This document shows, piece by piece, positions 7,599 through 22,180 of a stretch of 32,000 nt of DNA (the stretch's first letter is position 1; each line of letters begins with the position of its first letter). The stretch comes from Acaryochloris sp. CCMEE 5410. GTDB taxonomy: Bacteria > Cyanobacteriota > Cyanobacteriia > Thermosynechococcales > Thermosynechococcaceae. The notes below the pieces were generated by a model. It had not been told where the DNA came from. It was given only the letters and a program-made list of their open reading frames with translations, and searched no databases. Position numbers and translations under genes: made by a program. Location of the stretch: NCBI RefSeq assembly GCF_000238775.2, contig NZ_AFEJ02000004.1:120101-152100 (forward strand), written 5' to 3'.

Positions 7599-7679
7599 AA
7601 TGGTTCTTCTGATGAGTCTTCTTGAGATTAAGCAACCAGATGCAAACTAGATTAACAAGAACAGGCCACTTGCTTCTTG

Positions 7680-8084
7680 CTATTGAGGTTGAGTCGCATG
7701 AAAGCTGATTTCTTGTATCCAGACATTGGTAAAATCTTCAAAATTTTCCCCAGGCACAAGGACATGGGTAGACTCGTGTAGGGTTGCAATAAATGCTTCG
7801 CGCCATAATTCCCAAGCCCGAATTGAGGGTAGCTCTAAATCTGCGCAGTATTCATGCCAGCTATCTTTCTGAAAAAGTGAGGGACCGTTGAGAACTTGCT
7901 TAAATTCAACTTCAATCAAGCCGAAATCAACCAGTTTTTGGATGAAAGGTGGATTTTTGAAGGGTGGCTTTCTGAGATCGGTGATCGGGGTTTCATAACA
8001 AAGCCGCACGGTCATCCCAGGATACTTCTTGGCTGTTCTCAGAAGCGCCAATTGAGTCTGAGTTAAGGACGGGATGCTGATCAT
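7680..8084 (-). CDS. Hypothetical protein
   Basis: 134-aa ORF. GAGGTGAGACT precedes ATG 8084. No recognisable domain. Confidence 0.6.
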   Translation of the reverse strand: MISIPSLTQTQLALLRTAKKYPGMTVRLCYETPITDLRKPPFKNPPFIQKLVDFGLIEVEFKQVLNGPSLFQKDSWHEYCADLELPSIRAWELWREAFIATLHESTHVLVPGENFEDFTNVWIQEISFHATQPQ

Positions 8085-8260
8085 AGTCTCACCTCACGCA
8101 GAATCATCTAACAGCCCTTACGGATACCCTTTGATACCCATAAGGACGCTACTTTCTAGTTCGATTTAGCTCAATCACCACCCAACCTTAAGCTACTGCC
8201 AGCTTATCAAAACCACCCAGCCCCCAGGTTCCCCCAGAGGCCAGGTCGCCAGTTGCTTGC

Positions 8261-8926
8261 CTAAGATTTAGCGGCTTCCCTCCTCATCATGCTAGAGAGC
8301 GATGATTCGACTTTCTTCTTAGCAGTCCGACGCTTCCCACCGCCACTAGCCACAACAGGAGCCGGGTCTTGAGGAACGGCCAACTCATCATCCAGTGGGT
8401 CAGGATCAACAGGTGGATCAAGGACTTGGACAGTGGATTCATCCTCTGTGATGATTGGCTCATCCTCAGCCACGGGTTCAATCTCCTCCAGGTCTTCAGT
8501 AATTTCAGGAGCCTGCTCCTCAGCCTCGACCTCAGAATTATCCTCGACCGGGCTGTCGGCCAGGAATGCCTGGGTCTGGACCTTGAACCAATCGATAGCC
8601 TTATCGTGAAGCTTCCAATGGGCATCAATCCGATCCGTGAGCTGGGACTTGATGAGCGCTTGGACGAATACTGTCTCTTGCTGACAGCCTTTGCGGTAGA
8701 CCGCCACAGTTCGTTCCTTGACCTCCTCAAAGATGGGGCCATGCTTCTGGCTCACTTTGGATAGGCCCCAGGAGCAGAGGGCAGTGAAGTTTTTCCATCC
8801 TTGGATTTCCTTTCGGATAACGAACAGGAAGGCTTTGTTTGCAGCTAGGCCCACTTGGGTAGCGGCAGTGTCGATGACTTCGGTGTGGTCGGCTTGTTGG
8901 ATTTTGACAGAAGTTATCAATTTCAT
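8261..8926 (-). CDS. Hypothetical protein with acidic/proline-rich C-terminal tail ending in a basic patch
   Basis: ORF 8261..8974. Internal ATG at 8926 (MKLITSVK...) has an AAGGA Shine-Dalgarno site. Tail EVEAEEQAPEITEDLEEIEPVAEDEPIITEDE, then GGGKRRTAKKK. Confidence 0.65.
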   Translation of the reverse strand: MKLITSVKIQQADHTEVIDTAATQVGLAANKAFLFVIRKEIQGWKNFTALCSWGLSKVSQKHGPIFEEVKERTVAVYRKGCQQETVFVQALIKSQLTDRIDAHWKLHDKAIDWFKVQTQAFLADSPVEDNSEVEAEEQAPEITEDLEEIEPVAEDEPIITEDESTVQVLDPPVDPDPLDDELAVPQDPAPVVASGGGKRRTAKKKVESSLSSMMRREAAKS

Positions 8927-9238
8927 GAGTGTTGTCCTTTGAATAATGAATAGTGGAACGACTGGCATGTGCAACCGAGTCGGCCATGTGGATATTGAGA
9001 AAATGCAAAGGCGGTCTTTGGGCCTCGCGTGAGAATATACCCTCGGGAGAAATCAGGCTCGATGTGGAGCCGTGGTGAGGTAATTTTGAGAAAAACTTTG
9101 GGTGGGAATGCCCCACTGCCTAGCCACTAGGGTAGCGTGGATAGCTTGGTGCTACAAGGATTGGGGGATTAGAGTTTCTGATCGGTGGAGGGAGGATACT
9201 AGGCAGAGCTAATGATTAGTGTGCAGGTGGTGAGAATT

Positions 9239-9868
9239 CTAAAACCTAGAGCTGTGGACAACTAAATGACGAGTTCTGTCGATAGATAGCCATCCTTCCT
9301 TTCGCAGTTCACCAAGAACGCGAGTGGCCGTCACACGAGTGACCCCCGCCAGATCTGCAATTTGTTGATGAGTTAATCGAACCTTAATTCGAATACCTTC
9401 TGGGGTCTGCTCCCCTATTTCTTTGCTAAGCAACAACAGCAACTCCCGACAGCGAGCGCTCACAGGATGGAGATGAACCAAGGCTAGCAAGTCTTCTGCC
9501 TGCTGTAAACGCCGATTGAGTTGAGACAGAATTCCTTGTGCCAGTACAGACGATCGCTCCAGTTCTATCTGAGTGATCCGCATCAGCACTACATCAGATA
9601 ACGCAATCACTTCATAAGGGTCAATCTGGGTGAAGGGCAAACCAAAGGGCATCTCTGGATAAGCCAATCCCAGGATCGCCTCATTCCCCTCACTATCGAA
9701 AGTCCGTAGTTGAAGGATTCCCCGGCAAACCACCCAAAGTTCTTGAGAATGCAACGGAATCGTGATACCCCGCTTAAATTCGTAGGTTTGGCGTCCCTGA
9801 TAGACCTCTTCGAGTAACTGCGACCCATTGTTGGGGGATAAAGTAGGTAAAATCTGGGTTGGTGGCAT
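9239..9868 (-). CDS. Crp/Fnr-family transcriptional regulator
   Basis: C-terminal HTH THQQIADLAGVTRVTATRVLGELRKEGWL, preceded by a cNMP-binding-like beta-barrel region. The ORF opens with TTG at 9901. ATG 9868, preceded by GAGGA, is preferred. Confidence 0.85.
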   Translation of the reverse strand: MPPTQILPTLSPNNGSQLLEEVYQGRQTYEFKRGITIPLHSQELWVVCRGILQLRTFDSEGNEAILGLAYPEMPFGLPFTQIDPYEVIALSDVVLMRITQIELERSSVLAQGILSQLNRRLQQAEDLLALVHLHPVSARCRELLLLLSKEIGEQTPEGIRIKVRLTHQQIADLAGVTRVTATRVLGELRKEGWLSIDRTRHLVVHSSRF

Positions 9869-10256
9869 GGGTGAGTCCTCTGATGTAGCCTTTACACTCA
9901 AATCTCAATGTTGGGGTTAAACCTGAGTTAAGAGTCATTCTCAATAGAGTTACAACTAATCCCTGCAGAGTCATCCTAAATATCAATTCAACGTCAAACT
10001 ATATCCGCTGAAATTCATATTTTACGTATGCTAGCAATTCTGTCGTAAAGTTGTCAGGTTTTCATTTCATATTCACAGTTGAGAAAATTATCAATATGAT
10101 CTTCAACTAAATTCATTGAGATTTACTTATTTTCAACCACCCAGTCATGCATTACAGGCCAAGACTGGGACAAAAATATCGATACTCTGATTACGTTATT
10201 GTCGAAGCGGAATTAGGCTCGATCTATGATGAAGCTAGCCTTTCCAGGTGCCCCAG

Positions 10257-11045
10257 ATGGCTTATCCCCTCTCAGCCACTAAACTCATCACCTACCAGCA
10301 GTGCCCCAAAGCCTACAACTTCAGATATGAGCGGGGACTCTCTTCACCCTCTGCCTTCGGTTCGCCTGCCTTTGGGATTGCCCTTCACAAAACTCTCGCA
10401 GATATCTACAAAGACTGGAATTACGATTACCCCCTGCCTTCCCTCGATTGGTTTACCGTTTGCTGGCAGCACCACACTGGAGAGATGAAACCTGCTCAGA
10501 TTCATGAGGGGTGGATGGCCTTGCAGCTCTATTACGAGAAATACGTTGCCCCGCTACCCCAGATTCGTAAACCACTTGGCGTCGAGGGCAAGATCAAGGC
10601 CAGCTTCCAGGTGAACAATATCGAGTTTTCCATCACAGGTCGTTATGACCGCTTAGACTATACCGATAATGGCCTGGAACTGATTGACTACAAGACGAGC
10701 AAGACGATTGGCCCGTCTGATGGAATTGATCTACAGCTAGGACTTTACTTTTTGATTCTGGAACAGATCTACCCAGAAGCACTTGAAACGCTGAGTTTGA
10801 TTTATCTACGGCAAGGTCAGAAAGTTTCATTTGATGTGACGCCTGAGCATCACCAGCAGGTACGGGAATTGATCGGGGACATCGCGGTAAAGCTCAGAGC
10901 AGATGATGAGTGGAAACCGGAAGTTGGTGAACACTGCAACCACTGTGGTTATCAGAAGTACTGTCCCGCGAAGTCCAAGAAGCCAGAGCCATTACCAGAG
11001 GGGACGAAGGAAGCGCGGCAGGTTCAATTAGTGTTGGGATTGTAA
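10257..11045 (+). CDS. PD-(D/E)XK nuclease, Cas4/AddB-like with Fe-S cysteine cluster
   Basis: N-terminal YQQCPKAYNFRY. Core GRYDRLD ... LELIDYKTSK. C-terminal CNHCGYQKYCP (C-x2-C-x5-C). The ORF opens with GTG 10248; ATG 10257 is preferred. Confidence 0.82.
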   Translation: MAYPLSATKLITYQQCPKAYNFRYERGLSSPSAFGSPAFGIALHKTLADIYKDWNYDYPLPSLDWFTVCWQHHTGEMKPAQIHEGWMALQLYYEKYVAPLPQIRKPLGVEGKIKASFQVNNIEFSITGRYDRLDYTDNGLELIDYKTSKTIGPSDGIDLQLGLYFLILEQIYPEALETLSLIYLRQGQKVSFDVTPEHHQQVRELIGDIAVKLRADDEWKPEVGEHCNHCGYQKYCPAKSKKPEPLPEGTKEARQVQLVLGL

Positions 11046-11085
11046 TCAACACTTTAGTCATCCAAAGATGAGAATCTAAAAAAAA

Positions 11086-11571
11086 ATGGCACACTACAAT
11101 TTCATTACAGTTTGGGACATTGATGCCCCTATTGAGGACGTTTGGGAGCAACTGATTCACTCTGAAGATTGGCCTCAATGGTGGCCTGCTGTCCAAAGTG
11201 TTATTGAATTGGAAAAAGGGGATGAACAGGGGATTGGCAATATCCGTGAATATCATTGGAAAACTCCTCTCTCCTATGCTTTAAGCTTTAAAACTCGTTT
11301 AGTTCGCATTGAACCACCAATACTGATTGAGGGAATTGCAAGCGGAGAAGTGGAGGGAAAAGGAATTTGGGAACTTCAATCCATACCTAAAGGGACTCGC
11401 GTCCATTATTACTGGATTGTAGTGACAACCAAACTCTGGATGAATCTACTAGCATTGCTGCTTAAACCACTCATGGAGTGGAATCACAATGCAACTATGA
11501 AACAAGGTGCCCAAGGTTTAAGCCAAAGGATGGATACAGAGGTAACTTGTCAGGAGATGGCTGATTCCTAA
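11086..11571 (+). CDS. SRPBCC (START/polyketide-cyclase-like) family protein
   Basis: 161-aa ORF. The N-terminus ITVWDIDAPIEDVWEQLIHSEDWPQWWP is typical of SRPBCC proteins. Confidence 0.75.
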   Translation: MAHYNFITVWDIDAPIEDVWEQLIHSEDWPQWWPAVQSVIELEKGDEQGIGNIREYHWKTPLSYALSFKTRLVRIEPPILIEGIASGEVEGKGIWELQSIPKGTRVHYYWIVVTTKLWMNLLALLLKPLMEWNHNATMKQGAQGLSQRMDTEVTCQEMADS

Positions 11572-11690
11572 GCTTTGGAAGTAAAGATCATGCAAGCTTT
11601 GATGATGCCCTTCAGTCGCAGTTGTAATGTTGTGATTTAGAGGGAGCTAGGAAATATGCCAGGGACTCTTGATCGAGCAACCAATAAACC

Positions 11691-12075: not shown

Positions 12076-12951
12076 TTATCCAAACTCTGGGAATTCCCGC
12101 ACTCGAAGATCCTTGGGCCATTCCTCAGCATCTCCACCCTTCGCAGAACGGAGCTTTGGAACACCCACGGGATTACTGCCAAGCTGCTTGATAAACACGG
12201 GGATATTGGCTGACTTGCATTGGTCTCGAATCAAGCGAATCCAAGCCACATCACAAGGCCGAGCGCCTGGGCCAGACTCACCCCCGGTGATGCACCAGAT
12301 CGGAGACGATGATGCCAGATTAAGGTCTACTGCTTCCAATAACGGCTCACAACTCAAAAACCGGATGGAGGCTGGTGTTTGCCCGAGCAAAGGAATTCGC
12401 TCGTCTGCGGCCTTTTGGTTCTCAACTGATACACCTAACCAAAGATTAGATAGGGGCCAATCCCACTGACATGATTCAAGGTCGGCTAATACCTTGTGGT
12501 TGACATTGGCGGATCGGCCCTTATCAACAGCGGCAATCCGAATTCTATTTTTGGCACTCCTGAGATAATCCCGCATTCGTTTTGGCCGTTTGGTTAGCAT
12601 CTGTACGGTAACCTGGGGGTTGAGCGCGATTGCAGCAAAGATCTGATCCAGCCACTCGTCTTTAACCGCTGAATGAAACGGGTCAGACATCGAGGGCATG
12701 AATACTCGGGTCGGTTTGCGGAACTTGAATAGCTTCTCCAACTGCTCAGGGACAAAGTTCACCTGACCCGTCCAGTTCCCTTTCTCATCGACAACACCGT
12801 GATACTGAGGAAATTGTTGCAGTCGTCCTGACTTAGAAGCTCTGGCCGCATAACAATGTTCACAACCGCTGCTTTTTGCTCCCTTGGCTCTAACCTTTGT
12901 ACAACCCACCAAACAGTTGATAGTATGATCGGTCCATTCGATAGTGGTCAT
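12076..12951 (-). CDS. Phage Gp37/Gp68 family (PF07505 / DUF5131) three-Cys-motif protein
   Basis: Hallmark N-terminus MTTIEWTDHTINCLVGCTKV...SSGCEHCYA. ATG at 12951 is preceded by GGAGAAACAGAC. The N-terminal extension to 13128 overlaps the upstream gene. Confidence 0.85.
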   Translation of the reverse strand: MTTIEWTDHTINCLVGCTKVRAKGAKSSGCEHCYAARASKSGRLQQFPQYHGVVDEKGNWTGQVNFVPEQLEKLFKFRKPTRVFMPSMSDPFHSAVKDEWLDQIFAAIALNPQVTVQMLTKRPKRMRDYLRSAKNRIRIAAVDKGRSANVNHKVLADLESCQWDWPLSNLWLGVSVENQKAADERIPLLGQTPASIRFLSCEPLLEAVDLNLASSSPIWCITGGESGPGARPCDVAWIRLIRDQCKSANIPVFIKQLGSNPVGVPKLRSAKGGDAEEWPKDLRVREFPEFG

Positions 12952-12991
12952 GTCTGTTTCTCCAAAAGTTTTTATCAGGCTTGCTTCAGCC

Positions 12992-13618
12992 CTATACTTC
13001 CGCTCCCCAACACTCCCAACCCGGACGAGGGCACCGAGAGAACAACTCGATACGCTGACCGCCCAAGGCATCCCCCAGTCGATCCGCCATCTGGTAGAAC
13101 TCTTCTGGCTTTTGAGAGTGCTGACCAAGGGGAGCCTGGAATGCGGTGGGAATATTAGTCAATCCCAGTGCCATAAAGGTTTTAGCCTTTCCTTTGCGGC
13201 CTATAAGAACGTGTTCAGTTGCATTTCGACCGTAATGTCCTACACCGAATCTAATCTTGGACCTGTCTAATGTCGTCTTCACCCACGTATGTATGGCTTT
13301 GTACTCAAATCCCCATGCCTCCATAACTCTGAACGCCACTGGCAGATGGTTGTTTGTCGTCCACAACAACAAATATGAATCTGGAGCGGCAATCGAACTC
13401 ACGGGCATTGCCATGATTTCTTCATCAGTCATCGCTGGGTAAGGGCACCGTCCCCGATGGGTTTTGTCGGATTCCCGGAGATGGTAGCTCCAAGGTGGAT
13501 CAGCCGCTATCAGGGAGAATGCACCCACAGGGAGGAGTGGGGTATTCGGAATAAGGTTGAGCGTGATGGCAAGCTTCTGCTGCCCACGCTTATCGGTTGG
13601 TGCGTACATGGTTTTCAT
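12992..13618 (-). CDS. MT-A70-family DNA methyltransferase (DPPW motif)
   Basis: IAADPPWSY catalytic motif and GVGHYGRNATEHVLIGRKG. The ORF opens with TTG 13630; ATG 13618 is preferred. Confidence 0.88.
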   Translation of the reverse strand: MKTMYAPTDKRGQQKLAITLNLIPNTPLLPVGAFSLIAADPPWSYHLRESDKTHRGRCPYPAMTDEEIMAMPVSSIAAPDSYLLLWTTNNHLPVAFRVMEAWGFEYKAIHTWVKTTLDRSKIRFGVGHYGRNATEHVLIGRKGKAKTFMALGLTNIPTAFQAPLGQHSQKPEEFYQMADRLGDALGGQRIELFSRCPRPGWECWGAEV

Positions 13619-13700
13619 GGGTGATTCCAATGATGAATAAGGTTGTCATGGGGAGAGTGGCAGCACTCACAGACGACCGCTCTCTGTCTGGTCAAGTCAT

Positions 13701-14828
13701 TCAAACCAGCGAGAGCTGCTTGACCTTCCCGGTTGCCTCTTGCCAGGTCTGCTCAAAGTAATTCGGTCGATGCACCTTGTTCTGGATAAAGCCAGGGGCC
13801 GCAACCCAGAACCCTTCACAGGCCAGGGACTCATCGGGGTTTCTTTGATAGTCATAAGCCCTGGTATAGGTCGGGTCTGAGGTATCGCAAGCACAGCCGT
13901 GTTGCTTGGCAATCACACTCACTTGGGTATCAGCAGCACGACGAGGCATCGGATCAGACACTCTCATGACTCGCCTACTGATCTGCTTGCCTTGATAAAT
14001 GCGCTCGACTCGGTAAACAGCCCAATCAATTGAGTCCAGGTGATTTACGGCCATGTCCCTGACGAATTGGGGGGCAACCTCCCAGGCAGAGCGACTGGCA
14101 TATAGCTTCATTCTGGGATTGAGAGCAAGCGCAGCAGCTTCCAAGGTCAGGGCATACTGGCCCGCCTCCGGTTCAGACTCCCAGCGCTGGCCCGCCTGTT
14201 CAGGCCTGCAGAATGGGCAGAACACACAAGCTGACTTGAGCCAATCCGCCCCGGTCTTCTCACGGATATAGTCAATGCAAGTCTCCCTGTCCCAGCCCCA
14301 CTCTTGGAGCGGAAATCGGTAGTCTGACCCCATGCAAGGATAGTCCACGCACTTGGCTGAGCGCTTCTCTTCTCCCTTGGCATAGCCCAGGTAAGGACCG
14401 ATAGCCTCACCAGAGAGATGATCCGTTATCCAACTATCGATGACGACACCTTTGAACTTCATGGCACAGGTATGCGCTCCACTCACGGGTTGGCTGGTGC
14501 CCGCAATTCTCAGGGAATGGCCGAGAGTGTAATCGCCTTCGATATGGCAGATTTGGGGATTTCGAGTGTCGCTGAGGACGGTGTAGCCATCTTTTTTAGA
14601 GTGGCCCGCCTTAGCGACCTGGACAAAGCGGATCTGGCGCTGTCGGAGCAAGGGCAAGAGGTGAGTCTCGACCAGACTCTTGGTGGATTGATGTTCGTTG
14701 CCTGTCTGAGCGGTTATCAATATCAGATCATCAAAACTCGCAAAAGGGCGGGTTCGGGGGTTATAAATCCAGGAAAGCAAAATTGCGGTTGAGTCAACTC
14801 CTAAACCCCAATTAAGTACATGGATCAT
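13701..14828 (-). CDS. Divergent PAPS-reductase-like PP-loop ATP pyrophosphatase family protein
   Basis: N-terminus MIHVLNWGLGVDSTAILL (a variant of SGGxDS). Late CVFCPFC motif as in phage PAPS-reductase-like proteins. AGGAG lies 7 nt before ATG 14828. Confidence 0.65.
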   Translation of the reverse strand: MIHVLNWGLGVDSTAILLSWIYNPRTRPFASFDDLILITAQTGNEHQSTKSLVETHLLPLLRQRQIRFVQVAKAGHSKKDGYTVLSDTRNPQICHIEGDYTLGHSLRIAGTSQPVSGAHTCAMKFKGVVIDSWITDHLSGEAIGPYLGYAKGEEKRSAKCVDYPCMGSDYRFPLQEWGWDRETCIDYIREKTGADWLKSACVFCPFCRPEQAGQRWESEPEAGQYALTLEAAALALNPRMKLYASRSAWEVAPQFVRDMAVNHLDSIDWAVYRVERIYQGKQISRRVMRVSDPMPRRAADTQVSVIAKQHGCACDTSDPTYTRAYDYQRNPDESLACEGFWVAAPGFIQNKVHRPNYFEQTWQEATGKVKQLSLV

Positions 14829-14926
14829 GAGTGACTCCTGAAAACATCGCCCAGAAAGAAATAAAGAAACATGCCAAAGTAGATGGATTGCCAGAGCAGC
14901 CACCAGACAAGGGTGTAGCTATTCAT
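14825..14926 (-). CDS. Candidate 33-aa hydrophobic micropeptide
   Basis: Read manually: MNSYTLVWWLLWQSIYFGMFLYFFLGDVFRSHS. GGAGGTAATC precedes ATG 14926. Its TGA overlaps the next gene's ATG (ATGA). Below the ORF-track cutoff. Confidence 0.4.
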   Translation of the reverse strand: MNSYTLVWWLLWQSIYFGMFLYFFLGDVFRSHS

Positions 14927-14978
14927 GATTACCTCCCGAGTTTTCAGAATCCAGATAGAAACTGAAATATTTGTGGTT

Positions 14979-16331
14979 TCAAAAATTGGGGGATGACAGG
15001 GATTCCAGGCAACGAGTCAGAATCATCCGCATCACTGGTGGAGTGACAGCGTTGCCAAGCTGTTTGACCCTCTCTCGCTTATTTCCCAGAACTTTGTAAT
15101 CCTGAGCAAAGGCCATTGCTGCCTGGATTTCATGGGGCTGCAACATGCGGAAATAGCAATCCTCAACAGAAATAGAATGATCCGGTTGCACCAAGGCATG
15201 ACGATCCGCAGCAGTAATAGTGGGAATGGCAGCATCCATGCCACAGACCTGATCTGAGCCGCTGTAATAGCTGGTTAGAAAGGGTTGAACCAGAGAATTA
15301 TGGTCAACTGTGGTGATTGTGGGCAGTGGATCACGGATGCTAGCAGCCTGTGCCCCGGTGTAGTTCCGCACAATAAACGGTGTTGCCAAGGCCATTGTTT
15401 GGCGGGCAGTGTGGGTGGGAAGAATCCCCTCCACACTCCGAACCCGACTGCTCGTGTCATTGCCGTAAGCCGTTTCCACCAGGACAGGATTGTTGAACTT
15501 CTGCAGCCCTTTACGGATGCGCTCTAGGGTCGCTGGCTTCAAGGGTCGTTTGCGTTCACCTACTTTGGTACTGGGATAGCTCCAGTCGATAGCTGTGTGT
15601 GCCGGGGTATAGTATGGCTCCACCACCTGGGCACAACTAGGACAGCGGTATACATATTGATTGCGCTTGCCGTAGCGCCCCCACTTCTTAAATGGGTTTT
15701 TCCAGGACTGAATAGCCTCGACTTCACCGCATTGGGAGCAGTGGGCCAGCGGGGTAAAGCTGAGGTTAGGTTTGGGGTTGTTTCTCCTCCAGAAGACGAT
15801 GTACACCCGGTCTCTGCTTTGAGGTGCTTCAGCAAACATGCTGTTGAAGAAGACTGCCTCATGGTCATACCCCAAGGTATGCATGGCATTGAGCCAGCTA
15901 TCGAACAGTATCCAGTGGCGCACCTCGACCACGTTCTCGACAACGACAAAGTTGTACTGATGAACCTCTGAAAATCTGACGATGTCCCATAAAGTAGCCC
16001 TTGACCTTTCTTCAGCCGGGTCAATGGTTTGGGGGTTGAACAAGTCCATCTGGCCCAGGTTCTTGCGCTTTCTCCCTTTGGCTAAACTATGGTTTGTGCA
16101 TTCAGGGCTAGTAATCAAAATATCGGTACTGGGATAGCGGCGAGGGTCGCAAGCGCTGATGTCTGTGCAATCATGAGCCGTATTAGGGAAATTGGTGTTG
16201 TGGGTTTCCACTGCCTTCTCCCAATGATTGATTGCCATGACGATTTCACAGCCTGCTTGGGCAGCACCACTACTCGAACCGCCACAGCCGCAAAATTGAT
16301 CGGTGACGGTGATATAGGATTTCTTCTTCAT
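14979..16331 (-). CDS. dcm: DNA (cytosine-5) methyltransferase with zinc-ribbon insertion
   Basis: Motif I DQFCGCGG. Motif IV SPECTNHS (catalytic Cys). Motif VI VVENV. Motif VIII QSRDRVYIVF. Motif X QLGNAVTPP. The variable region carries a CSQC...CPSC insertion. ATG 16331 (MKKKSY...) is preferred over ATG 16355. Confidence 0.9.
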   Translation of the reverse strand: MKKKSYITVTDQFCGCGGSSSGAAQAGCEIVMAINHWEKAVETHNTNFPNTAHDCTDISACDPRRYPSTDILITSPECTNHSLAKGRKRKNLGQMDLFNPQTIDPAEERSRATLWDIVRFSEVHQYNFVVVENVVEVRHWILFDSWLNAMHTLGYDHEAVFFNSMFAEAPQSRDRVYIVFWRRNNPKPNLSFTPLAHCSQCGEVEAIQSWKNPFKKWGRYGKRNQYVYRCPSCAQVVEPYYTPAHTAIDWSYPSTKVGERKRPLKPATLERIRKGLQKFNNPVLVETAYGNDTSSRVRSVEGILPTHTARQTMALATPFIVRNYTGAQAASIRDPLPTITTVDHNSLVQPFLTSYYSGSDQVCGMDAAIPTITAADRHALVQPDHSISVEDCYFRMLQPHEIQAAMAFAQDYKVLGNKRERVKQLGNAVTPPVMRMILTRCLESLSSPNF

Positions 16332-16333
16332 GA

Positions 16334-16495
16334 CTAAGCCCCCAAACGATTGCATTCTCGACAGAACCCTTTGCTATCGAGATGTGAGGGTCTGTACCAC
16401 TCGCCACAGGCACGGCATTGCTGCTTAGGCTTTGGGCTAAGACTTTGCTTGATAGTTTGAACAATCCGATGCAGAAAGCTGTGTTCTGATTTCAT
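16334..16495 (-). CDS. Candidate 53-aa zinc-ribbon protein
   Basis: Read manually: MKSEHSFLHRIVQTIKQSLSPKPKQQCRACGEWYRPSHLDSKGFCRECNRLGA. AAGGAGAAATAGCA precedes ATG 16495. It fills the gap between flanking genes exactly. Confidence 0.55.
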   Translation of the reverse strand: MKSEHSFLHRIVQTIKQSLSPKPKQQCRACGEWYRPSHLDSKGFCRECNRLGA

Positions 16496-16507
16496 TGCTA
16501 TTTCTCC

Positions 16508-17557
16508 TTAAGTCGGGCCTGCGTCCTCCCCAAATGCGCCCGCAGGCAGAGTCCAGGCATTCGGGTCAATGAGGATGGGTGCTGTATAGTCTTGGCTCAG
16601 GGCTAGCTGGAGCTGGTCAGGATGCTGGTGGATGGCCTCATAGACCTTGCCCTTGGTCGCCATCTCTGGGATGGAAAGCTTGTTGTCGATGGTATGCTGA
16701 AACGCTTGCTCGTACTGGTGCAGCCGCTCTGTGCGTTCTGGTGAGATGGCTAGATTGGAAGCCCATTGGTTGGGTGAGCCAAAGATACAGAACTGGCAGC
16801 TCAACCGCCCCCAGCCCAGATGGTAGGCAGGATGGGCCTGCACTCCCCAGCGCTGGATTGTTCCCCAGATTTGCTCAGTGGTATAGGCATGGACGGGACG
16901 CCAGTGGTCAATATGACGCCTGAGCTTATGGCTGTCCCGCCGATCAGTCCGGTGAGGCTCAAAACTCTGATACTTGGCCCTAGCTGCACTCTCCTGCGCC
17001 CGTTCCCCTGTGACCACCAGAGTTCGGGAATGGTTGAACCGGGATTGGTTGGCAATGGCGGTGCTAAGAACATCAATCTTCAGATACGAAGAACACCAGC
17101 GGGTTTTGAGGTCAGCGGTTTTGGCAGGAAACTTGCACCGAGTTCCAGGCTTGCCTTGCCCTCCAGAAACTTGCTCTCCATCAGGCGTTTCAAAGTGCGT
17201 GGGTGCCTTGGGTTGGTCCTTGCGACACATTTCGCGTTCTAGCCCTCCCTCCAGCCAACTCATATACAGAGGAAGGTCGAAGGCTTGGGCAAATTTGCGG
17301 CAGTAGTTCTCAGTGACAGGCCAGTCAAACAAAGTAGAGCTTTGGGGGTTGACTGGAGTATTGCTTAGACCATCGACAAGGTGGTGATGCAACTCAATCT
17401 TGCTCCTGTCCACTCCCAGCTCCATCAACCGGAGCAGACAACAGATAGAGTCCTTGCCTCCAGAGAAGGCAACGATGATGCAGTCATAGGTGGACAGATC
17501 AGGGAGCGTCGAAACACCGGGCACCTGGAGGGGCAAGACCATTTGGGTGGCGCTCAT
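16508..17557 (-). CDS. PAPS-reductase-family PP-loop ATP pyrophosphatase (phage/plasmid type)
   Basis: Canonical PP-loop IIVAFSGGKDS. Also RWCSSYLKIDV, TGERAQESAARA and GWGRLSCQFCIFGS. ATG 17557 (MSATQ...) lies 10 nt after the upstream stop. Confidence 0.85.
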   Translation of the reverse strand: MSATQMVLPLQVPGVSTLPDLSTYDCIIVAFSGGKDSICCLLRLMELGVDRSKIELHHHLVDGLSNTPVNPQSSTLFDWPVTENYCRKFAQAFDLPLYMSWLEGGLEREMCRKDQPKAPTHFETPDGEQVSGGQGKPGTRCKFPAKTADLKTRWCSSYLKIDVLSTAIANQSRFNHSRTLVVTGERAQESAARAKYQSFEPHRTDRRDSHKLRRHIDHWRPVHAYTTEQIWGTIQRWGVQAHPAYHLGWGRLSCQFCIFGSPNQWASNLAISPERTERLHQYEQAFQHTIDNKLSIPEMATKGKVYEAIHQHPDQLQLALSQDYTAPILIDPNAWTLPAGAFGEDAGPT

Positions 17558-17567: not shown

Positions 17568-17783
17568 CTAACAACACAACTTGAGTCGAACAGCGGGGCG
17601 TAAATCTGTGATTTTGACTGTGGTGAAGTTCTTACTCCACTCCCCGGATTTGTCCTTGGCAATCATCAGAACGTGCTGTCTGGAGACTGTTGAGAACACC
17701 TTGAGACGGGTGCCATTCTGTCTCCTGAGCGTTCCGAGGAAGTACACAAGATGATGCTGAGGCGAGTACACTAAATCGCTCAT
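17568..17783 (-). CDS. Hypothetical protein
   Basis: 71-aa ORF. GGAGGAAAATCCC precedes ATG 17783. Confidence 0.6.
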   Translation of the reverse strand: MSDLVYSPQHHLVYFLGTLRRQNGTRLKVFSTVSRQHVLMIAKDKSGEWSKNFTTVKITDLRPAVRLKLCC

Positions 17784-17831
17784 GGGATTTTCCTCCAGTA
17801 TTCAATTGGTTAATTTGGGTTGTGGCTACCG

Positions 17832-18086
17832 TTAAAGTTCGAGATAGGTGACGGCAAATGCACCTTCAATATCTGCAGTGCATTTTCTAAAGCAGATGCA
17901 ATCACCGTCTGGTTCTAGGAAGTACTCCATCCAATATTCATGGCGAACCTGATGAGCTTCAGCAGGGCAATCTGGATTGACGGCCTGAGCAAAAGTGGCT
18001 GGATCAAAATGACCGAGGGCATAGCAGCCTTGCAAGCCACCAATCCAATCACAGCCCACTTCCCGTAATTCCAGAACTTCGATCAT
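17832..18086 (-). CDS. Hypothetical Cys-rich protein
   Basis: 84-aa ORF. AGGAGACAGTCCC precedes ATG 18086. Confidence 0.6.
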   Translation of the reverse strand: MIEVLELREVGCDWIGGLQGCYALGHFDPATFAQAVNPDCPAEAHQVRHEYWMEYFLEPDGDCICFRKCTADIEGAFAVTYLEL

Positions 18087-18225
18087 GGGACTGTCTCCTA
18101 TTTCTATTCATAAGCAAACAAAAGGATGAAGTTGCCACCCTTCTGTTGAGGTCGCGATTTTGCTGTGGTGGCTCACCCAAATCTGGCGGACATTGGGCAG
18201 ATAAAATATAGATGTATTCTTCTCC

Positions 18226-18260
18226 GGCAACTCCCCAAACGGTGGGTTGCCCTTTATTTC
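18226..18260 (+). terminator. Plus-oriented terminator-like hairpin
   Basis: GGCAACTCCCC-aaac-GGTGGGTTGCC (11 bp with one wobble and one mismatch), followed by CTTTATTTC. Confidence 0.45.
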
Positions 18261-18266
18261 GAGTTC

Positions 18267-18524
18267 TCAAACTTGGGCCAAGACCTTCAGGCCCACCTCC
18301 GTTTCGTCTCCTTCGTCCATCTCTCGTAGATTCTTCAGGTATTCTGGTGTTGGATAAATTCCCCGTGGTTTCCCACAGTCTTCACAGAGCCAACGACAAT
18401 AGGGGCGACCAGAGGATTTATGGATCAATACTTGGGATGAGATCGCAAACTTCAGTTGATGACAACTATGGCAACGACGAATTCTCGGCACCTCTTGGAG
18501 CCGCACAGGTTGATATTGAAACAT
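18267..18524 (-). CDS. Hypothetical zinc-ribbon protein
   Basis: 85-aa ORF with CHSC ... CEDC pairs. AGGAGAAATCTACC precedes ATG 18524. Confidence 0.65.
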   Translation of the reverse strand: MFQYQPVRLQEVPRIRRCHSCHQLKFAISSQVLIHKSSGRPYCRWLCEDCGKPRGIYPTPEYLKNLREMDEGDETEVGLKVLAQV

Positions 18525-18565
18525 GGTAGATTTCTCCTAGATAGAAAATCTCAAAGATTCAACTT

Positions 18566-18605
18566 GAGGCGATTCTTACTAGCTGGAATCGCCTCATTTT
18601 TTATT
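18566..18605 (+). terminator. Canonical intrinsic terminator oriented for the plus strand inside a minus-strand gene array
   Basis: Perfect 10-bp stem GAGGCGATTC / GAATCGCCTC with a 10-nt loop, followed by ATTTTTTATT on the plus strand. No T-run in the minus sense. Confidence 0.6.
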
Positions 18606-18624
18606 CGATTGATTCACTACAGCC

Positions 18625-19008
18625 CTAGATGCCAGCGTCCTTGTGCTTCCACTCCAGGTAGGATTTAATGACATCGCCGTGGCAGGCCAGGGGAGCACAC
18701 CAGCAGAGCAACTTCACTTCTGGCATGGCCTCCAGCTTGGCTAGCTCTGCCATCACTTGAGTACGATTGGGGCGCTTCCACATGCCAGACACAGTGACGT
18801 TGTATTTGTCAGCCAGACCTGGGACCACATCAACGGGATTGGCTCCCAGGTTGGCGACTTCATGGAGGTATTCACGGAACGCTGCGACCACTGCCATTCG
18901 CTCAGATTCATGGAACATATGAAAGGGATTACCAAGGACGCTGGCACGGTCGCAGCGGTAGCCCTTGACATTGCGATTATGGCGAAGATTAATGACGGTG
19001 ATTGTCAT
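18625..19008 (-). CDS. DUF4326 domain protein
   Basis: GNPFHM and LLCWCAPLACHGDVI match the DUF4326 signature. GGAGA Shine-Dalgarno before ATG 19008. Confidence 0.78.
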   Translation of the reverse strand: MTITVINLRHNRNVKGYRCDRASVLGNPFHMFHESERMAVVAAFREYLHEVANLGANPVDVVPGLADKYNVTVSGMWKRPNRTQVMAELAKLEAMPEVKLLCWCAPLACHGDVIKSYLEWKHKDAGI

Positions 19009-19173
19009 AATGATTCTCCCAAAATAAAGTGGGAATCAAGACTACTTAAATTGCCCTAATTCTTCATAAATACAGCAGTCATGAAAATGCAGAAATGTAT
19101 AGATAGTAAGGATTGTCTTGGTGAACGTGATAGATTTATAGGCATGAAACAGAAGCATTTTATGCTTTAGTCG

Positions 19174-19205
19174 GGGCAATTTTCCTGACTATGGATTGCC
19201 CTTTT
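19174..19205 (+). terminator. Plus-oriented terminator-like hairpin in AT-rich gap
   Basis: GGGCAAT-N14-ATTGCCC followed by TTTT. Confidence 0.45.
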
Positions 19206-19299
19206 ACTCATTCGGCTAGACTAGTTTGTCAAAACCCACAATATAGAATCTGAGACTGTGTTAAATTTCATTCAGATTGTATGAACAGCAATCATTTGA

Positions 19300-19331
19300 G
19301 GGCGATCTAATATACTCCAGGTCGCCCTTTT
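19300..19331 (+). terminator. Plus-oriented terminator-like hairpin
   Basis: GGGCGATC-N12-GGTCGCCC (one G-T wobble) followed by TTTT. Confidence 0.45.
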
Positions 19332-19436
19332 CCATACCGCTTTGTCATCCTTCACCTCAATTGGGGCATCCTCATAGTTGTGAGTACGGATAACTACTTC
19401 AAAACCATCAACGAAATAGATCTCGACAGCTTCTCG

Positions 19437-19754
19437 TTACTGAAGCTGTCTTTTTTGTCTCAAGCTCCCCTCGCACCAGGCCATCCAAGATTTCGCCAAC
19501 TGGCAATCACTGACTTCATCCGGTAGCTCTGCCCAGAACAACTCGAAGGCTTGCTGAGCCTGCCAGAAATACTCAAAATACCCCTCGCGCACCGACCAGT
19601 TGCACAACAACAAATTGCGGAGAAACAGAGCTTGGTAAGGATGAAGGCGACCGGGGTAAACCGGAAAACCCTCATCCTCACAGAAGCCCTTGATATCTTC
19701 CCGGCAATACTCCGTTAGAGTTTTCAGTGCTTGCCAGTCGATGGTCAGGTTCAT
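19437..19754 (-). CDS. Hypothetical protein
   Basis: 105-aa ORF. Its ATG overlaps the upstream stop (ATGA at 19751-19754). Confidence 0.6.
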   Translation of the reverse strand: MNLTIDWQALKTLTEYCREDIKGFCEDEGFPVYPGRLHPYQALFLRNLLLCNWSVREGYFEYFWQAQQAFELFWAELPDEVSDCQLAKSWMAWCEGSLRQKRQLQ

Positions 19755-20197
19755 ATTCCAAACTTTTTCTGAGCAGAGATGAACAAGGTGCTAGCCGCAC
19801 ATTTGAGCGTTTCTTCACTAACTCCAGACTCCCCTAGCGCTCTGGATGCCTGTTTGAAACAGAACGCATAAAGATCAGCCCGACTCGTGATGTAACTTGC
19901 GATCGCACTTTTCACTTCTCCTTCCAACTCCCCAGTATCCAGGGGTGGTGTCTCGACCACCGGGGACTGACCCGGAGCCGGGGCTTGCTCGACCAGGCTG
20001 TACTTCCCTTTGGCATCCTTAGCGACCTGAACAGGTTGGCCTTTGCGGAGAGCTTTGAGCGCTGCATCATCGGGATTACCCCAAATCTTTATATCTTCTC
20101 CATCAGGGAGTGTGATTTTTGCATTAAGTCTTGGACCATGCTGGGTATCCCATTCTTTAGCGGGAAATTTGACCTTAGCAGTTAGTATTTGTGTCAT
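19751..20197 (-). CDS. Hypothetical protein
   Basis: 148-aa ORF. GGAG Shine-Dalgarno. ATGA overlap with the upstream gene at 20194-20197. Confidence 0.65.
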   Translation of the reverse strand: MTQILTAKVKFPAKEWDTQHGPRLNAKITLPDGEDIKIWGNPDDAALKALRKGQPVQVAKDAKGKYSLVEQAPAPGQSPVVETPPLDTGELEGEVKSAIASYITSRADLYAFCFKQASRALGESGVSEETLKCAASTLFISAQKKFGI

Positions 20198-20433
20198 TGT
20201 TCTGCTCCTTCTAATACGTCCATCAGTCCTGGCAAACTCTCATTGGCAGCAGCCAGCAGATCAGGAGGAATCACCGATAACACTTGGGGAGAGAACCCCC
20301 AGATCAAGATTGCCGGGTCCAGTTGTCCAGCCCTGGCAAATGCAATTGCTTGATCAATCGATAATTGACACCAGGCATTCTCTGGATGGGGAGCTGGTAC
20401 AGGAGGCAAAGTCGGTAGGGTAGTAGTGGTCAT
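20194..20433 (-). CDS. Hypothetical protein
   Basis: 79-aa ORF. GGAGAAAATCCT precedes ATG 20433. Confidence 0.6.
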   Translation of the reverse strand: MTTTTLPTLPPVPAPHPENAWCQLSIDQAIAFARAGQLDPAILIWGFSPQVLSVIPPDLLAAANESLPGLMDVLEGAEQ

Positions 20434-20479
20434 AGGATTTTCTCCAGATAGGCGAAACCCCCAGCGAATCAGCCAGGGG

Positions 20480-20513
20480 AATTAATAGGTGTGAAATAAA
20501 TTAATAGGTGTGA
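20480..20513. repeat. Tandem 15-bp perfect direct repeat AATTAATAGGTGTGA x2 (19-bp period)
   Basis: Copies at 20480-20494 and 20499-20513, in the 120-nt gap upstream of gene 20194..20433. A 14/15 related copy ATTAATAGGTATGAA lies at 31624-31638. Confidence 0.8.
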
Positions 20514-20553
20514 TACGAGGGGATTGGGAAGCGCTTGGTGGAATAAAGGATAA

Positions 20554-20712
20554 CTATTGTGCTTTTTCTCGTAACCCTTCTAGCTCATGAATCCAATGCT
20601 CAATCATACTCAGAACGTGGTTACGGCTAGACCAATCACCGTTAAACCCTTGAATTGCATGGGTTTGCAATTCCTTCAAAAACGCTATGTCTTTTTTGAT
20701 GTCTTGTTGCAT
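20554..20712 (-). CDS. Candidate 52-aa protein
   Basis: Read manually: MQQDIKKDIAFLKELQTHAIQGFNGDWSSRNHVLSMIEHWIHELEGLREKAQ. GGGGA lies upstream. It competes with track ORF 20642..20857, which has no Shine-Dalgarno site. Confidence 0.4.
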   Translation of the reverse strand: MQQDIKKDIAFLKELQTHAIQGFNGDWSSRNHVLSMIEHWIHELEGLREKAQ

Positions 20713-20784
20713 GGTTGAGTCCCCATGAAGAATTTAGTGCTAATCGATTCAGGAGTACATGGCTGAGATCGCATAGTCTCTGCT

Positions 20785-20940
20785 TTAAACCCTGCTCCAA
20801 TACACTAGCCGCAACCCCATCGCAGCAACATACTCCCTGATGACCGACCCAAGGCATTCCTGGGTTTGGGCTTGCTGGAAATCAATCAACTGGAAGGAGC
20901 GGCCATTCCAGACTTCGATTTTGGCAGCGTGAATTTTCAT
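20785..20940 (-). CDS. Candidate 51-aa protein
   Basis: Read manually: MKIHAAKIEVWNGRSFQLIDFQQAQTQECLGSVIREYVAAMGLRLVYWSRV. GGAGG lies 7 nt before ATG 20940. Confidence 0.5.
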   Translation of the reverse strand: MKIHAAKIEVWNGRSFQLIDFQQAQTQECLGSVIREYVAAMGLRLVYWSRV

Positions 20941-21043
20941 GGGATTGCCTCCGGTGATTCAGAAGGAAGCCCCCCGGCAGTGAACCAGGGGGCTGATTAG
21001 TGTGAGGGAAAAAGCAAGGATAAGAAAAGAAAGAGAAAAGTTT

Positions 21044-21058
21044 GGGGGGGGGAGGGGG
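21044..21058. repeat. Homopolymeric G9-A-G5 tract within a ~60-nt polypurine stretch
   Basis: gtttGGGGGGGGGAGGGGGct read directly. The purine-rich run spans 21001-21058, in the region upstream of gene 20785..20940. Confidence 0.8.
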
Positions 21059-21111
21059 CTGTTAATTGGGTTGCAAGGTTTGGATGTATCCTTCCAATGA
21101 TTTAAATAGGG

Positions 21112-21141
21112 AAAACCCCGGACAGGAGATGCCGGGGTTTT
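21112..21141. terminator. Bidirectional terminator-like hairpin AAAACCCCGG-N10-CCGGGGTTTT
   Basis: GC stem 21116-21121 / 21132-21137, flanked by A4 and T4. Lies downstream of gene 21341..21556. Confidence 0.6.
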
Positions 21142-21340
21142 AGGGAGTAACCGAAGATCGAGTGACAAACCCAATCGGTGAGAGAAGAAACTCAAAAATG
21201 AAGTATTGAAGCTTAAATACTAGATAATGCTACTTATTTGTTAGGTATTAGACTACATTTCTAGACCTAATCAAGTTGTAAATCTGGGTACATATTAATC
21301 AAGTTCTCAACCAATCAGGGAAAAGGACGAGAAGCTGGCA

Positions 21341-21556
21341 TCAAGCTTTGGGAGCTGCAAACCCTACCCTGGTACGATCCAGGATGGTTTGGACTGCTCT
21401 GATGCCAAGGGGATTATCAAGCCTGAGACTGGGATTTTGAGAATTCGGGTCAAGGACCCAAGCGATACCTTCAAAGCGTTTCCCGCACTCCACAGCAGCA
21501 TCAACCCTGATTTGGTCATCGACCCAGACATAGGCATAGGTTATCTTTGGAGGCAT
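21341..21556 (-). CDS. Hypothetical protein
   Basis: 71-aa ORF in the same orientation as the array. No clear Shine-Dalgarno site. Confidence 0.45.
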   Translation of the reverse strand: MPPKITYAYVWVDDQIRVDAAVECGKRFEGIAWVLDPNSQNPSLRLDNPLGIRAVQTILDRTRVGFAAPKA

Positions 21557-21582
21557 GGGTCCAGCTCAATGAAAGGACATAG

Positions 21583-21617
21583 CAAAGCACCCTAGCAGAA
21601 AGGGCCAGGGTGCTTTG
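21583..21617. other. Perfect 11-bp intergenic hairpin without U-tract
   Basis: CAAAGCACCCT (21583-21593) and AGGGTGCTTTG (21607-21617) with a 13-nt loop. Lies between genes 21642..21872 and 21341..21556. Confidence 0.6.
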
Positions 21618-21641
21618 CAAGTATTGGGTGAAGGGATGGGG

Positions 21642-21872
21642 CTAGCTCAACACGGCGGGAACGATGATGGCAATCACAGCCGTTGCAATCAAGCCAAAGG
21701 CCAAGTTAATGAGCAGTTTAGAGGCTTCCCAATAGGTATCTGTTCGTTCGTTGGCGGATCGAACGTCTTTATCAAGAGCTTCGACCTTTGTTGTTAGCTC
21801 CTGAATCTGGCTCGACATCGTTGTTAAAGCCTGTTCGATCGGATTATTACTTTCAGGGGTAGATGCTGTCAT
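21642..21872 (-). CDS. Small coiled-coil protein with C-terminal transmembrane helix (XhlA/holin-like architecture)
   Basis: AAGGAGCTTGCA precedes ATG 21872. The sequence MTASTPESNN...IQELTTKVEALDKDVRSANERT is followed by LLINLAFGLIATAVIAIIVPAVLS. The longer track ORF overlaps the upstream small gene. Confidence 0.6.
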   Translation of the reverse strand: MTASTPESNNPIEQALTTMSSQIQELTTKVEALDKDVRSANERTDTYWEASKLLINLAFGLIATAVIAIIVPAVLS

Positions 21873-21956
21873 TGCAAGCTCCTTGGTTACTGTCATTGTA
21901 TCAATCGAAGAAGAAAAGCACCCCAGCCCGGAAGCCAGGATGCAGAGGAATGTGGG

Positions 21957-22109
21957 CCTATTGCTCGTCATATAGCTGTTGCAGTTGGTCAACCTGAGAA
22001 GGACTCAGGTCCAACTCCCAAACAACCTTGAACTCAGCTTCGGGATATTCGCAGCCTCCGTCAATGAGTTTATTGAGCATCTGTAATGCTCTCTCTATAA
22101 GACTTTCCA
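21957..22109 (-). CDS. Candidate 50-aa protein
   Basis: Read manually: MESLIERALQMLNKLIDGGCEYPEAEFKVVWELDLSPSQVDQLQQLYDEQ. Weak Shine-Dalgarno site. Confidence 0.4.
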
Positions 22110-22130
22110 TAATCACGTTCTCTGATTATT

Positions 22131-22163: not shown

Positions 22164-22180
22164 TTGACCTGGAACTAACT

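Follow-up and report, generated by a model that had tools for sequence, protein, structure and literature searches.

The DNA analysed here is a stretch of 32,000 nucleotides (nt) from Acaryochloris sp. CCMEE 5410 (contig NZ_AFEJ02000004.1, positions 120,101 to 152,100), referred to below as the window, whose minus strand carries a compact array of genes for PP-loop proteins, DNA methyltransferases and a DUF5131 protein. Seven co-directional open reading frames (ORFs) are packed within 12076-17557, and all were confirmed, with gene starts refined against the plasmid of A. marina S15 and window ORFs scanned with Pfam, PHROG, NCBIfam and PADLOC. From PP1 to DUF5131 they are:

16508-17557, minus strand: PP1, a PAPS-reductase-family PP-loop protein of 349 aa (PF01507)
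16334-16495, minus strand: zinc-ribbon ORF of 53 aa (CxxC...CxxC), small and inserted between PP1 and Dcm
14979-16331, minus strand: Dcm, an orphan C5 cytosine DNA methyltransferase of 450 aa (PF00145)
14825-14926, minus strand: hydrophobic peptide of 33 aa, coupled to PP2 by an ATGA overlap
13701-14828, minus strand: PP2, a divergent PAPS-reductase-like protein of 375 aa (phrog_424)
12992-13609, minus strand: orphan MT-A70 family N6-adenine methyltransferase of 205 aa (PF05063)
12076-12951, minus strand: DUF5131 / Gp37-Gp68 protein of 291 aa (PF07505)

The intergenic gaps, in the same order, measure 12, 2, 52, -4 (the overlap), 91 and 40 nt, in agreement with a first-pass annotation that had described seven tightly packed co-directional genes with gaps of 2-150 nt and one ATGA overlap, and the motifs and gene identities quoted there were all found in the translations and family scans. 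Comparison with the A. marina S15 orthologues gives dN/dS values of 0.06-0.21 for six of the seven genes, the 33-aa peptide included, as would be produced by purifying selection, and these six are therefore real genes. No consensus promoter or terminator was detected on the minus strand inside the array.

At the DNA level the whole array is ~83% identical to plasmids of A. marina S15, A. marina MBIC10699 and Acaryochloris 'Moss Beach'. At the protein level PP1 has an exact (100%) match in Acaryochloris sp. CCMEE 5410 itself. The sister plasmids differ module by module, with PP2, MT-A70, the ASCH gene and the zinc ribbon each gained or lost singly. Those of S15 and Moss Beach hold an extra ASCH gene between MT-A70 and DUF5131 and are without the zinc-ribbon ORF; pREC3 is without PP2, and its 33-aa peptide stands before MT-A70; on pREB1 ssb and DUF4326 lie upstream of all that is left, namely a short Dcm, an ASCH-sized ORF and DUF5131; and on pREB3 there remain DUF5131, the zinc-ribbon ORF and part of the 33-aa peptide. 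DUF5131 is the part of the array retained most widely, and the syntenic blocks of the sister plasmids additionally hold ssb, DUF3768 and DUF932. Three of these plasmids, pREC3, pREB1 and pREB3, are typed conjugative (MOBF/MPF_T). Such variation by module, together with the lack of a conserved neighbour for PP1 described below, does not sustain the proposal of the first-pass annotation that all seven genes carry out one multi-step modification.

Some details of these junctions may be recorded here. The ASCH gene of the sister plasmids (L001, the S15 locus, 12865-13308; L002, 12792-13241; L154, 3756-4205) overlaps the start of DUF5131, and it is cleanly absent from the window at 12951-12992, where a 40-nt gap remains. 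On pREB3 of A. marina MBIC11017 (L156), PP1, Dcm, PP2 and MT-A70 are all gone, and at 4536-4816 the zinc-ribbon ORF shares sequence with an overlapping, longer ORF akin to the 33-aa peptide; the pREB3 locus seems to have arisen from the array by deletion.

PP1 matches PF01507 at 30.7 bits (cutoff 22.5; E 4e-7) and phrog_424 at E 1.7e-26. Its SGGKDS motif is kept across 30 aligned homologues, its middle residue G33 alone being nearly invariant, and in the same alignment C155, C254 and C257 are invariant, forming a Cys...CxxC triad. The AlphaFold (AF2) model (pLDDT 89.8) matches TilS, APS/PAPS reductase and CysD with a Foldseek probability of 1.0, and also FMN adenylyltransferase and the [4Fe-4S] thiolase NcsA; against the APS reductase 2goy the TM score is 0.61 (target-normalised). 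Assignment to the CysH/APS reductases was rejected, with 17.9 bits to PRK02090 (cutoff 154) and 20.2 to TIGR02055 (cutoff 235.3). The ECG[LI]H motif that holds the C-terminal catalytic cysteine of CysH and APS reductase does not occur in the PP1 translation, which ends ...LPAGAFGEDAGPT, and to our knowledge CysH lacks the canonical ATP-type SGGKDS. The DndC model TIGR03183 scored 32.9 bits (cutoff 290.4) and aligned over model positions 112-198 only, so PP1 was not assigned to DndC either. PADLOC profiles gave weak but specific matches to BrxP (2.4e-11), DndC (1e-10) and SspD (3e-5); the BrxP match spans 215-346 of 779 positions, the core PAPS domain, and partners of BrxP or SspD were not detected, so that these identities too were set aside. 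The view of the first-pass annotation that the locus is unlike Dnd or Ssp is thus borne out, the DndC, SspD and BrxP models having matched weakly and over the PAPS domain alone. Among the larger window ORFs scanned there was no match to DndD, DndE, an SspC-type ATPase or any other P-loop NTPase of these systems, and with their partners missing a complete Dnd, Ssp or BREX-4 system is ruled out.

The PP1 family is large and well conserved, with >1800 matches, many at 50-57% identity across phyla, and relatives on 1602 plasmids by tblastn, of which 1157 are conjugative and which include the IncC backbone. PP1 is 43% identical to the IncC protein, which has no methylase nearby, and 47% to that of Pseudoalteromonas phage KB12-38. 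A relative on a Komagataeibacter plasmid lies between a ParB-family protein on one side and a zincin-like metallopeptidase, ArdC-like in our reading, and ssb on the other. We searched the surroundings of PP1 orthologues on 52 IMG/VR contigs with family hidden Markov models (HMMs) and found Dcm near 3, MT-A70 near 0, DUF5131 near 1 and a PP2-like gene near 6; in a Pfam scan of 133 ORFs flanking PP1 orthologues no family occurred more than 2 times, and methylases accounted for only 3. PP1 has no conserved neighbour; we read it as an enzyme of mobile elements that stands alone and is DndC-like in design. No characterised member close to PP1 was found in the literature search.

PP2 has no Pfam or NCBIfam match, and was recognised through phrog_424 (E 3e-13); its match to SspD (E 1.4e-3) is weak and, with Ssp partners not detected, PP2 was not assigned to that family. 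The family is rare, with ~143 homologues among 5.8 billion proteins and a Pfam domain in none of them. In place of SGGKDS the protein carries GLGVDS, and 33 homologues conform to G-[LM]-G-V-[DE]-S, in which the first Ser and the Lys are lost; given this degenerate PP-loop, the use of ATP by PP2 is uncertain. The cysteine motif CVFCPFC is present, with C121, C201 and C204 invariant. The PP2 model (AF2, pLDDT 93.8) shows an extra C-terminal alpha/beta domain, and Foldseek matches it to a Vibrio phage PAPS reductase with a probability of 1.0, and also to the PP-loop domain of GMP synthase. Aligned directly, PP1 and PP2 share little: BLASTP recovers only the CxxC region and hhalign gives a probability of 1.9%. 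Their kinship is drawn instead from shared PHROG matches, fold and motifs. In both proteins the spacing of the Cys...CxxC triad resembles that of the iron-sulfur (Fe-S) sites of APS reductase and DndC.

Sequence searches of the PDB with PP1, PP2 and DUF5131 returned nothing usable. Family profiles of PP1 and PP2 gave only marginal matches there, to 21fy_C, a recently deposited 270-aa protein named 'PptA'; that to the PP1 profile covers Y-x-LG-[WY]...CxxC...W (E 0.03) and that to the PP2 profile a central Glu/Arg-rich region (E 0.09). 21fy_C was matched by neither of two short, related PAPS-reductase-like proteins.

The neighbourhoods of PP2 were sampled at 80 loci, one genome per species, from Cyanobacteria, Acidobacteriota and Actinomycetota, over a range of 10 kb. 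Neither MT-A70 nor DUF5131 was found within this range (0/80 each), and Dcm was found in 6/80; as the Dcm HMM sees only relatives of the array Dcm, all counts of C5 methylases are lower bounds, for which Pfam scans of the neighbours partly compensate. The HMMs iterated locally for DUF3560 and for the third methylase (described below) cross-contaminated each other and were left out of the counts. Of the 80 loci, 28 have a canonical PAPS-reductase-like gene, with SGGKDS and CxxC, no more than 10 kb from PP2; it is co-directional with PP2 in 27 of them, and in 14 the two genes lie within 300 nt of each other, some with 4-nt overlaps. The two PP-loop families thus co-occur (28/80, and 6/52 from the side of PP1) far above our chance expectation. 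The partners in Actinomycetota and Acidobacteriota are distant PP1 paralogues, scoring 43-105 bits with the PP1 profile where orthologues score 400-575. A true PP1 orthologue together with PP2 or a PP2-like gene is found on the Acaryochloris plasmids, a Thermosynechococcaceae contig, an Acaryochloridaceae contig and six IMG/VR contigs, and phage KB12-38 also pairs a PP1 orthologue with a PP2-like gene. A C5 methylase joins the pair in KB12-38 and in loci L103 and L118, lying in L118 between both PP-loop genes; the association of Dcm with the pair reaches weak significance in IMG/VR (Fisher p of 0.03) and none in the GTDB genome set (0.11). The conservation of a PP-loop/Dcm/PP-loop trio, which the first-pass annotation had proposed to look for across genomes, is therefore partial: the seven-gene unit is not conserved, while the PP-loop pair recurs and the trio appears in a few unrelated elements. 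Near PP2 the methyltransferases are absent (MT-A70, 0/80) or rare (Dcm, 6/80), and DUF5131 is absent too (0/80). That annotation had said its proposal would fall if the PP-loop proteins were ordinary sulfate-assimilation or tRNA-modifying enzymes with no conserved linkage to the methyltransferases; since the linkage is not conserved, the latter half of that description is what we find.

Neighbours of the PP-loop pair include Mom-family proteins, DUF6094 and C5 methylases, RadC, ParB, DUF3560, DNA ligase and integrases, a gene set like that of DNA-modification and counter-restriction islands on mobile elements, and no single partner is fixed. Single PP2 loci have ParB, RadC, DUF3560 and LPD29, or TrwC and SSB, as neighbours, and near cyanobacterial PP2 genes a MobA/VirD2 relaxase occurs in 12 loci and NikA in 9. 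The literature searched seems to contain no description of the PP2 family or of its repeated pairing with canonical PP-loop paralogues. Further observations concern single loci. DUF3560 adjoins PP2 homologues in a Spirulina sp. assembly. Among loci L044-L094 (Acidobacteriota, Actinomycetota) Mom-family proteins in 3 loci and DUF6094 methyltransferases in 3 loci lie within 4 kb of the pairs, which hints that several DNA-hypermodification modules may share these islands. In KB12-38 (L012) a run at 2735-11580, all in one direction, comprises a methyltransferase, the PP2-like protein (279 aa), a ligase-domain protein and the PP1 orthologue, and continues with the C5 methylase, a DndB-like protein and a small 'sulfate reductase'; here, in an unrelated host, the theme of the array returns with more components.

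The Dcm protein matches PF00145 at 115.4 bits (E 4.8e-33) and TIGR00675 at 107.5 bits (cutoff 100.65), and begins at MKKKSY (14979-16331) and not at the ATG at 16355. Aligned to M.HhaI it shows FxGxG (motif I), SPEC (motif IV, its Cys on the catalytic PC Cys), ENV (motif VI), QSRDR (motif VIII, QxRxR) and GNAV (motif X, GN), and its CxxC...CxxC insertion sits in the variable region. Missing from that region (window 15300-15420) is a 33-aa repeat unit that the S15 orthologue (L001 15250-16701) has between two 'LVQPF' repeats; in sequence the loss resembles a repeat-mediated in-frame deletion in the target-recognition region, and it might change specificity. The MT-A70 protein, with AADPPWSY (DPPW) in its translation, matches PF05063 at 121.7 bits (cutoff 23.9; E 4e-35), phrog_359 at E 5e-65 and PADLOC MTase_II at E 1.6e-53. 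A Type II restriction-modification system was rejected, there being no cognate endonuclease next to the methylase. In the co-directional block no restriction nuclease was found, those nearby being only a convergent Cas4-like PD-(D/E)XK protein and a distant NERD protein, and the statement of the first-pass annotation that no cognate restriction component is recognisable holds for the window ORFs scanned.

DUF5131 matches PF07505 at 234.1 bits (cutoff 28.9; E 2e-69) and phrog_2045, and carries GC...GCEHCYA with a cysteine spacing of C-x13-C-x2-C; its match to TIGR04471 is weak (54 bits, cutoff 355). The conserved three-Cys motif noted earlier for PF07505 is thus present, and the 'unknown chemistry' noted with it needs qualifying in that the affiliation of the motif is not wholly unknown: DUF5131 is listed among the groups of the radical-SAM superfamily (RadicalSAM.org, PMC9477430). 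Membership of the PADLOC candidate systems PDC-M30 or PDC-M41 was rejected, no PDC-M30A/M41A partner having been detected. Of the small ORFs, the zinc-ribbon one has its own AAGGAG ribosome-binding site and no match in Pfam, PHROG, NCBIfam or PADLOC; it is missing at the L001/L002 junction, and its pREB3 homologue (E 4e-25) is annotated as a hypothetical protein. The 33-aa peptide keeps its amino-acid sequence, ribosome-binding site and overlap in L001 and L002, with a dN/dS of 0.21.

The array forms the downstream end of a one-directional block that runs from ~25920 to 12076 (~14 kb), the upstream part of which holds the following:

17568-25920, minus strand: upstream part of the co-directional block, with small ORFs, DUF4326, DUF3560 and a third methyltransferase
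18625-19008, minus strand: DUF4326 (Pfam/PADLOC scans)
23000-24406, minus strand: DUF3560 protein of 468 aa (Pfam/PADLOC scans)
24476-25564, minus strand: third putative DNA methyltransferase (PADLOC MTase_II, 6.6e-13)

Beyond the array end, a Cas4-like PD-(D/E)XK nuclease (10248-11045, plus strand) and an SRPBCC/polyketide-cyclase-like protein (both within window 10248-11571, plus strand) converge on it; the position of the nuclease beside DUF5131 is kept on the S15 plasmid, and nuclease and SRPBCC-like gene are both kept on pREB3. At window 314-4449 (plus strand) lie an SNF2 helicase with DUF3670 (1080 aa), which strongly matches PADLOC DpdE/ZorD-type SNF2 profiles, and then a SWIM zinc-finger protein; the pREC3 array is likewise adjoined by an SNF2 protein. 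On the other side, window 26463-31621 holds a NERD nuclease-related protein, a group-1/2-type sigma-70 factor, an HTH-pentapeptide-repeat protein and a 566-aa ORF without match in Pfam, NCBIfam or PADLOC.

On balance we lean towards reading the array as a modular establishment and counter-restriction block of a pREB/pREC-kind Acaryochloris plasmid, composed of separately mobile modules and not of the steps of one pathway. Two orphan DNA methyltransferases lie in the array and a third upstream, with no cognate nuclease recognised, and they would methylate the plasmid's own DNA and so shield it from the restriction systems of new hosts. Both PP-loop proteins have the PAPS-reductase fold and are specific to mobile elements, and the Cys triad of each, to judge from its spacing and from APS reductase and DndC, could ligate an Fe-S cluster. 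By analogy with DndC, SspD and BrxP and with the [4Fe-4S] tRNA thiolases, PP1 would adenylate a nucleic-acid substrate and transfer sulfur or another nucleophile to it, an activity that may mark the element's DNA, or else blunt phosphorothioate-dependent or other restriction. PP2, where present, may be a partner subunit of PP1, as in Ncs6/Ncs2 (Ctu1/Ctu2), and the two-PP-loop module may be a real functional unit. DUF5131 would be a further, independent radical-SAM-like module. A precedent for the counter-defence role is given in PMC13551039, which cites Piel 2022 for a phage PAPS reductase reported to help evade the host Dnd system and states that phage PAPS reductases cluster in variable regions, often anti-defence hotspots. 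The likeness to a plasmid leading region is inferred from gene content (ssb, DUF3560, DUF4326, DUF932 and orphan methylases) and from the relaxase, NikA and TrwC neighbours of homologues.

Several observations weigh against this modular interpretation. S15 unnamed8 and Moss Beach pMB03, the plasmids that match best, are both typed non-mobilizable, and the window itself holds no origin of transfer or relaxase, so that 'leading region' is here an analogy of gene content. PP1 and PP2 are each alone in most loci, and their partnership is therefore not obligatory; at the same time the recurrent trio of PP1, a PP2-like protein and a C5 methylase leaves room for functional coupling with Dcm. The tight packing of the genes, with no internal terminator found, would suit a single-pathway operon just as well. 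The putative Fe-S cluster and sulfur-transfer step are inferred from a cysteine pattern and family resemblance, and DUF5131 matches the PADLOC candidate defence components PDC-M30B/M41B.

How far do other explanations account for the same locus? That the seven genes form one multi-step hypermodification pathway acting on a single base or backbone position seems to us improbable. Tight co-directional packing with an ATGA overlap, the absence of internal consensus promoters or terminators and the apparent purifying selection on array genes (dN/dS for six) are in its favour, as are L013, an unrelated and likely cyanobacterial contig that holds a cluster of the same five enzyme families minus PP2 in a different order, and the PP1, PP2-like and C5-methylase trio of L103, L118 and KB12-38; yet PP2, MT-A70 or PP1 is dropped singly by sister plasmids, MT-A70 and DUF5131 are each at 0/80 near PP2 and MT-A70 at 0/52 near PP1, PP1 keeps no conserved neighbour, and Dcm and MT-A70 have all canonical methyltransferase motifs. 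We regard it as possible, if rather unlikely, that PP1 and PP2 alone make up a two-subunit Fe-S PP-loop enzyme producing a new sulfur-containing or adenylate-activated DNA mark without DndD/E or SspB/C, the methylases and DUF5131 being unrelated to it. The division of motifs, with SGGKDS in one partner, G-[LM]-G-V-D-S in the other and Cys triads in both, speaks for this proposal, as do a co-occurrence of 28/80 (27 co-directional, 14 adjacent, some with 4-nt overlaps) and 6/52, the setting of the pairs among Mom proteins, methylases, RadC and ParB, and the extra C-terminal domain that, from the PP2 model, could bind nucleic acid. Against these stand the 52/80 PP2 loci and 46/52 PP1 loci with the partner out of range, and the fact that the Actinomycetota and Acidobacteriota partners are distant PP1 paralogues; a shared island niche could explain the co-occurrence, and according to PMC12914056 the synthesis of phosphorothioates by Dnd, Ssp and BREX-4 requires a P-loop NTPase, of which none was recognised in the window ORFs scanned. 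A more specific form, to which we give a little less credence, has a PP1/PP2 heteromeric Fe-S enzyme on plasmids, phages and integrative elements marking their own DNA in a hitherto undescribed, adenylate-activated and probably sulfur-containing way without the scanning ATPases of Dnd, Ssp or BREX-4, in some cases perhaps on or beside the sites of the adjacent C5-methyltransferase; the pair would then be a minimal module for counter-restriction that can be carried from element to element.

We also doubt that the locus is a host-protective defence system, in which methylation or another mark would be the self label and DUF5131, the Cas4-like PD-(D/E)XK protein or the SNF2/SWIM pair an unrecognised effector that restricts, and consider this improbable. 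The match of DUF5131 to PDC-M30B/M41B would suit such a system, but the PDC-M30A/M41A partner was not detected; the PD-(D/E)XK nuclease (10248-11045) adjoins DUF5131 on two sister plasmids, and an SNF2 helicase and a NERD nuclease are present in the window, but the nuclease is on the opposite strand, DUF5131 persists without methylases and methylases without a nuclease, and array genes occur mostly in transfer or establishment contexts and in phages. Hardly any weight need be given to the idea that PP1 and PP2 are CysH-type auxiliary metabolic genes of sulfur assimilation or tRNA-modifying cargo. Their Pfam family name and a fold like that of APS/PAPS reductases and TilS invite it, and phage PAPS reductases are commonly interpreted in this sense, as auxiliary metabolic genes for sulfur (for example PMC13369170). 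The CysH and APS-reductase models, however, reach 18-20 bits against cutoffs of 154-235, and the genes are found on plasmids, in phages and in integrative elements, with DNA-modification genes around them; PP1 lacks ECG[LI]H and has the SGGKDS that, as far as we know, is absent from CysH.

The modular block that we prefer can be set beside several known systems. With DndC, SspD and BrxP the proteins share the PAPS-reductase/PP-loop fold, SGGKDS (in PP1), the Cys...CxxC triad and an occurrence in DNA-modification or conflict loci; they differ in scores far below the thresholds and confined to the core PAPS domain, in being on plasmids and phages and not in host defence islands, and in the degenerate loop and extra C-terminal domain of PP2. 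Unlike Dnd, Ssp and BREX-4 systems, the locus has no DndD/E, SspB/C, BrxC/Z/L or P-loop NTPase that we could find. PP1 is a bona fide member of the phage and plasmid 'PAPS reductases' (phrog_424, IncC, phage 186 orf84/P2-type, the phage gene reported by Piel 2022) and, like them, belongs to the variable accessory part of a mobile element, whereas here it is joined by the rarer paralogue PP2 and a C5 methylase. In Ncs6/Ncs2 (Ctu1/Ctu2) one PP-loop paralogue is catalytic and the other degenerate, and the array resembles this pair and TtuA/NcsA in such a pairing and in a three-Cys Fe-S site by the adenylation site, putative in our case; those enzymes, by contrast, are housekeeping, act on tRNA U34/U54 and are similar to PP1 and PP2 at the level of fold only. 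Within PF07505, the array protein is full-length and high-scoring and has the three-Cys motif of the family, whose C-x13-C-x2-C spacing here departs from the canonical CxxxCxxC of radical SAM enzymes; no TcmP-type or radical SAM 'mobile pair' partner was found for it, and the overlapping ASCH gene of the sister plasmids is missing. The locus resembles the orphan methyltransferases and anti-restriction genes of plasmid leading regions (Samuel and Burstein 2024, PMC11541004) in its one-directional block of small genes and its association with conjugative plasmids, and homologous loci do so in carrying orphan methylases, ssb, ParB-like, RadC and DUF3560-type genes; it differs in that an origin of transfer and a relaxase were not located, so that a leading-region position is putative here.

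Plasmid and phage 'PAPS reductases' and islands of orphan methylases are already known. PAPS-reductase-like genes of mobile elements are very common and often taken for 'auxiliary' genes of sulfur metabolism, and we would argue that the comparative data favour a role for them in nucleic-acid modification or counter-defence. The IncC backbone that carries a PP1 relative is that of clinical Enterobacteriaceae plasmids. Should the reading of the PP-loop pair prove false, the locus would be no more than a collection of orphan methylases and accessory genes of the usual kind. If instead the pair is a minimal DNA-marking enzyme, it would extend the known chemistry of DNA modification, and would explain a widespread backbone gene relevant to the establishment of resistance plasmids in new hosts.

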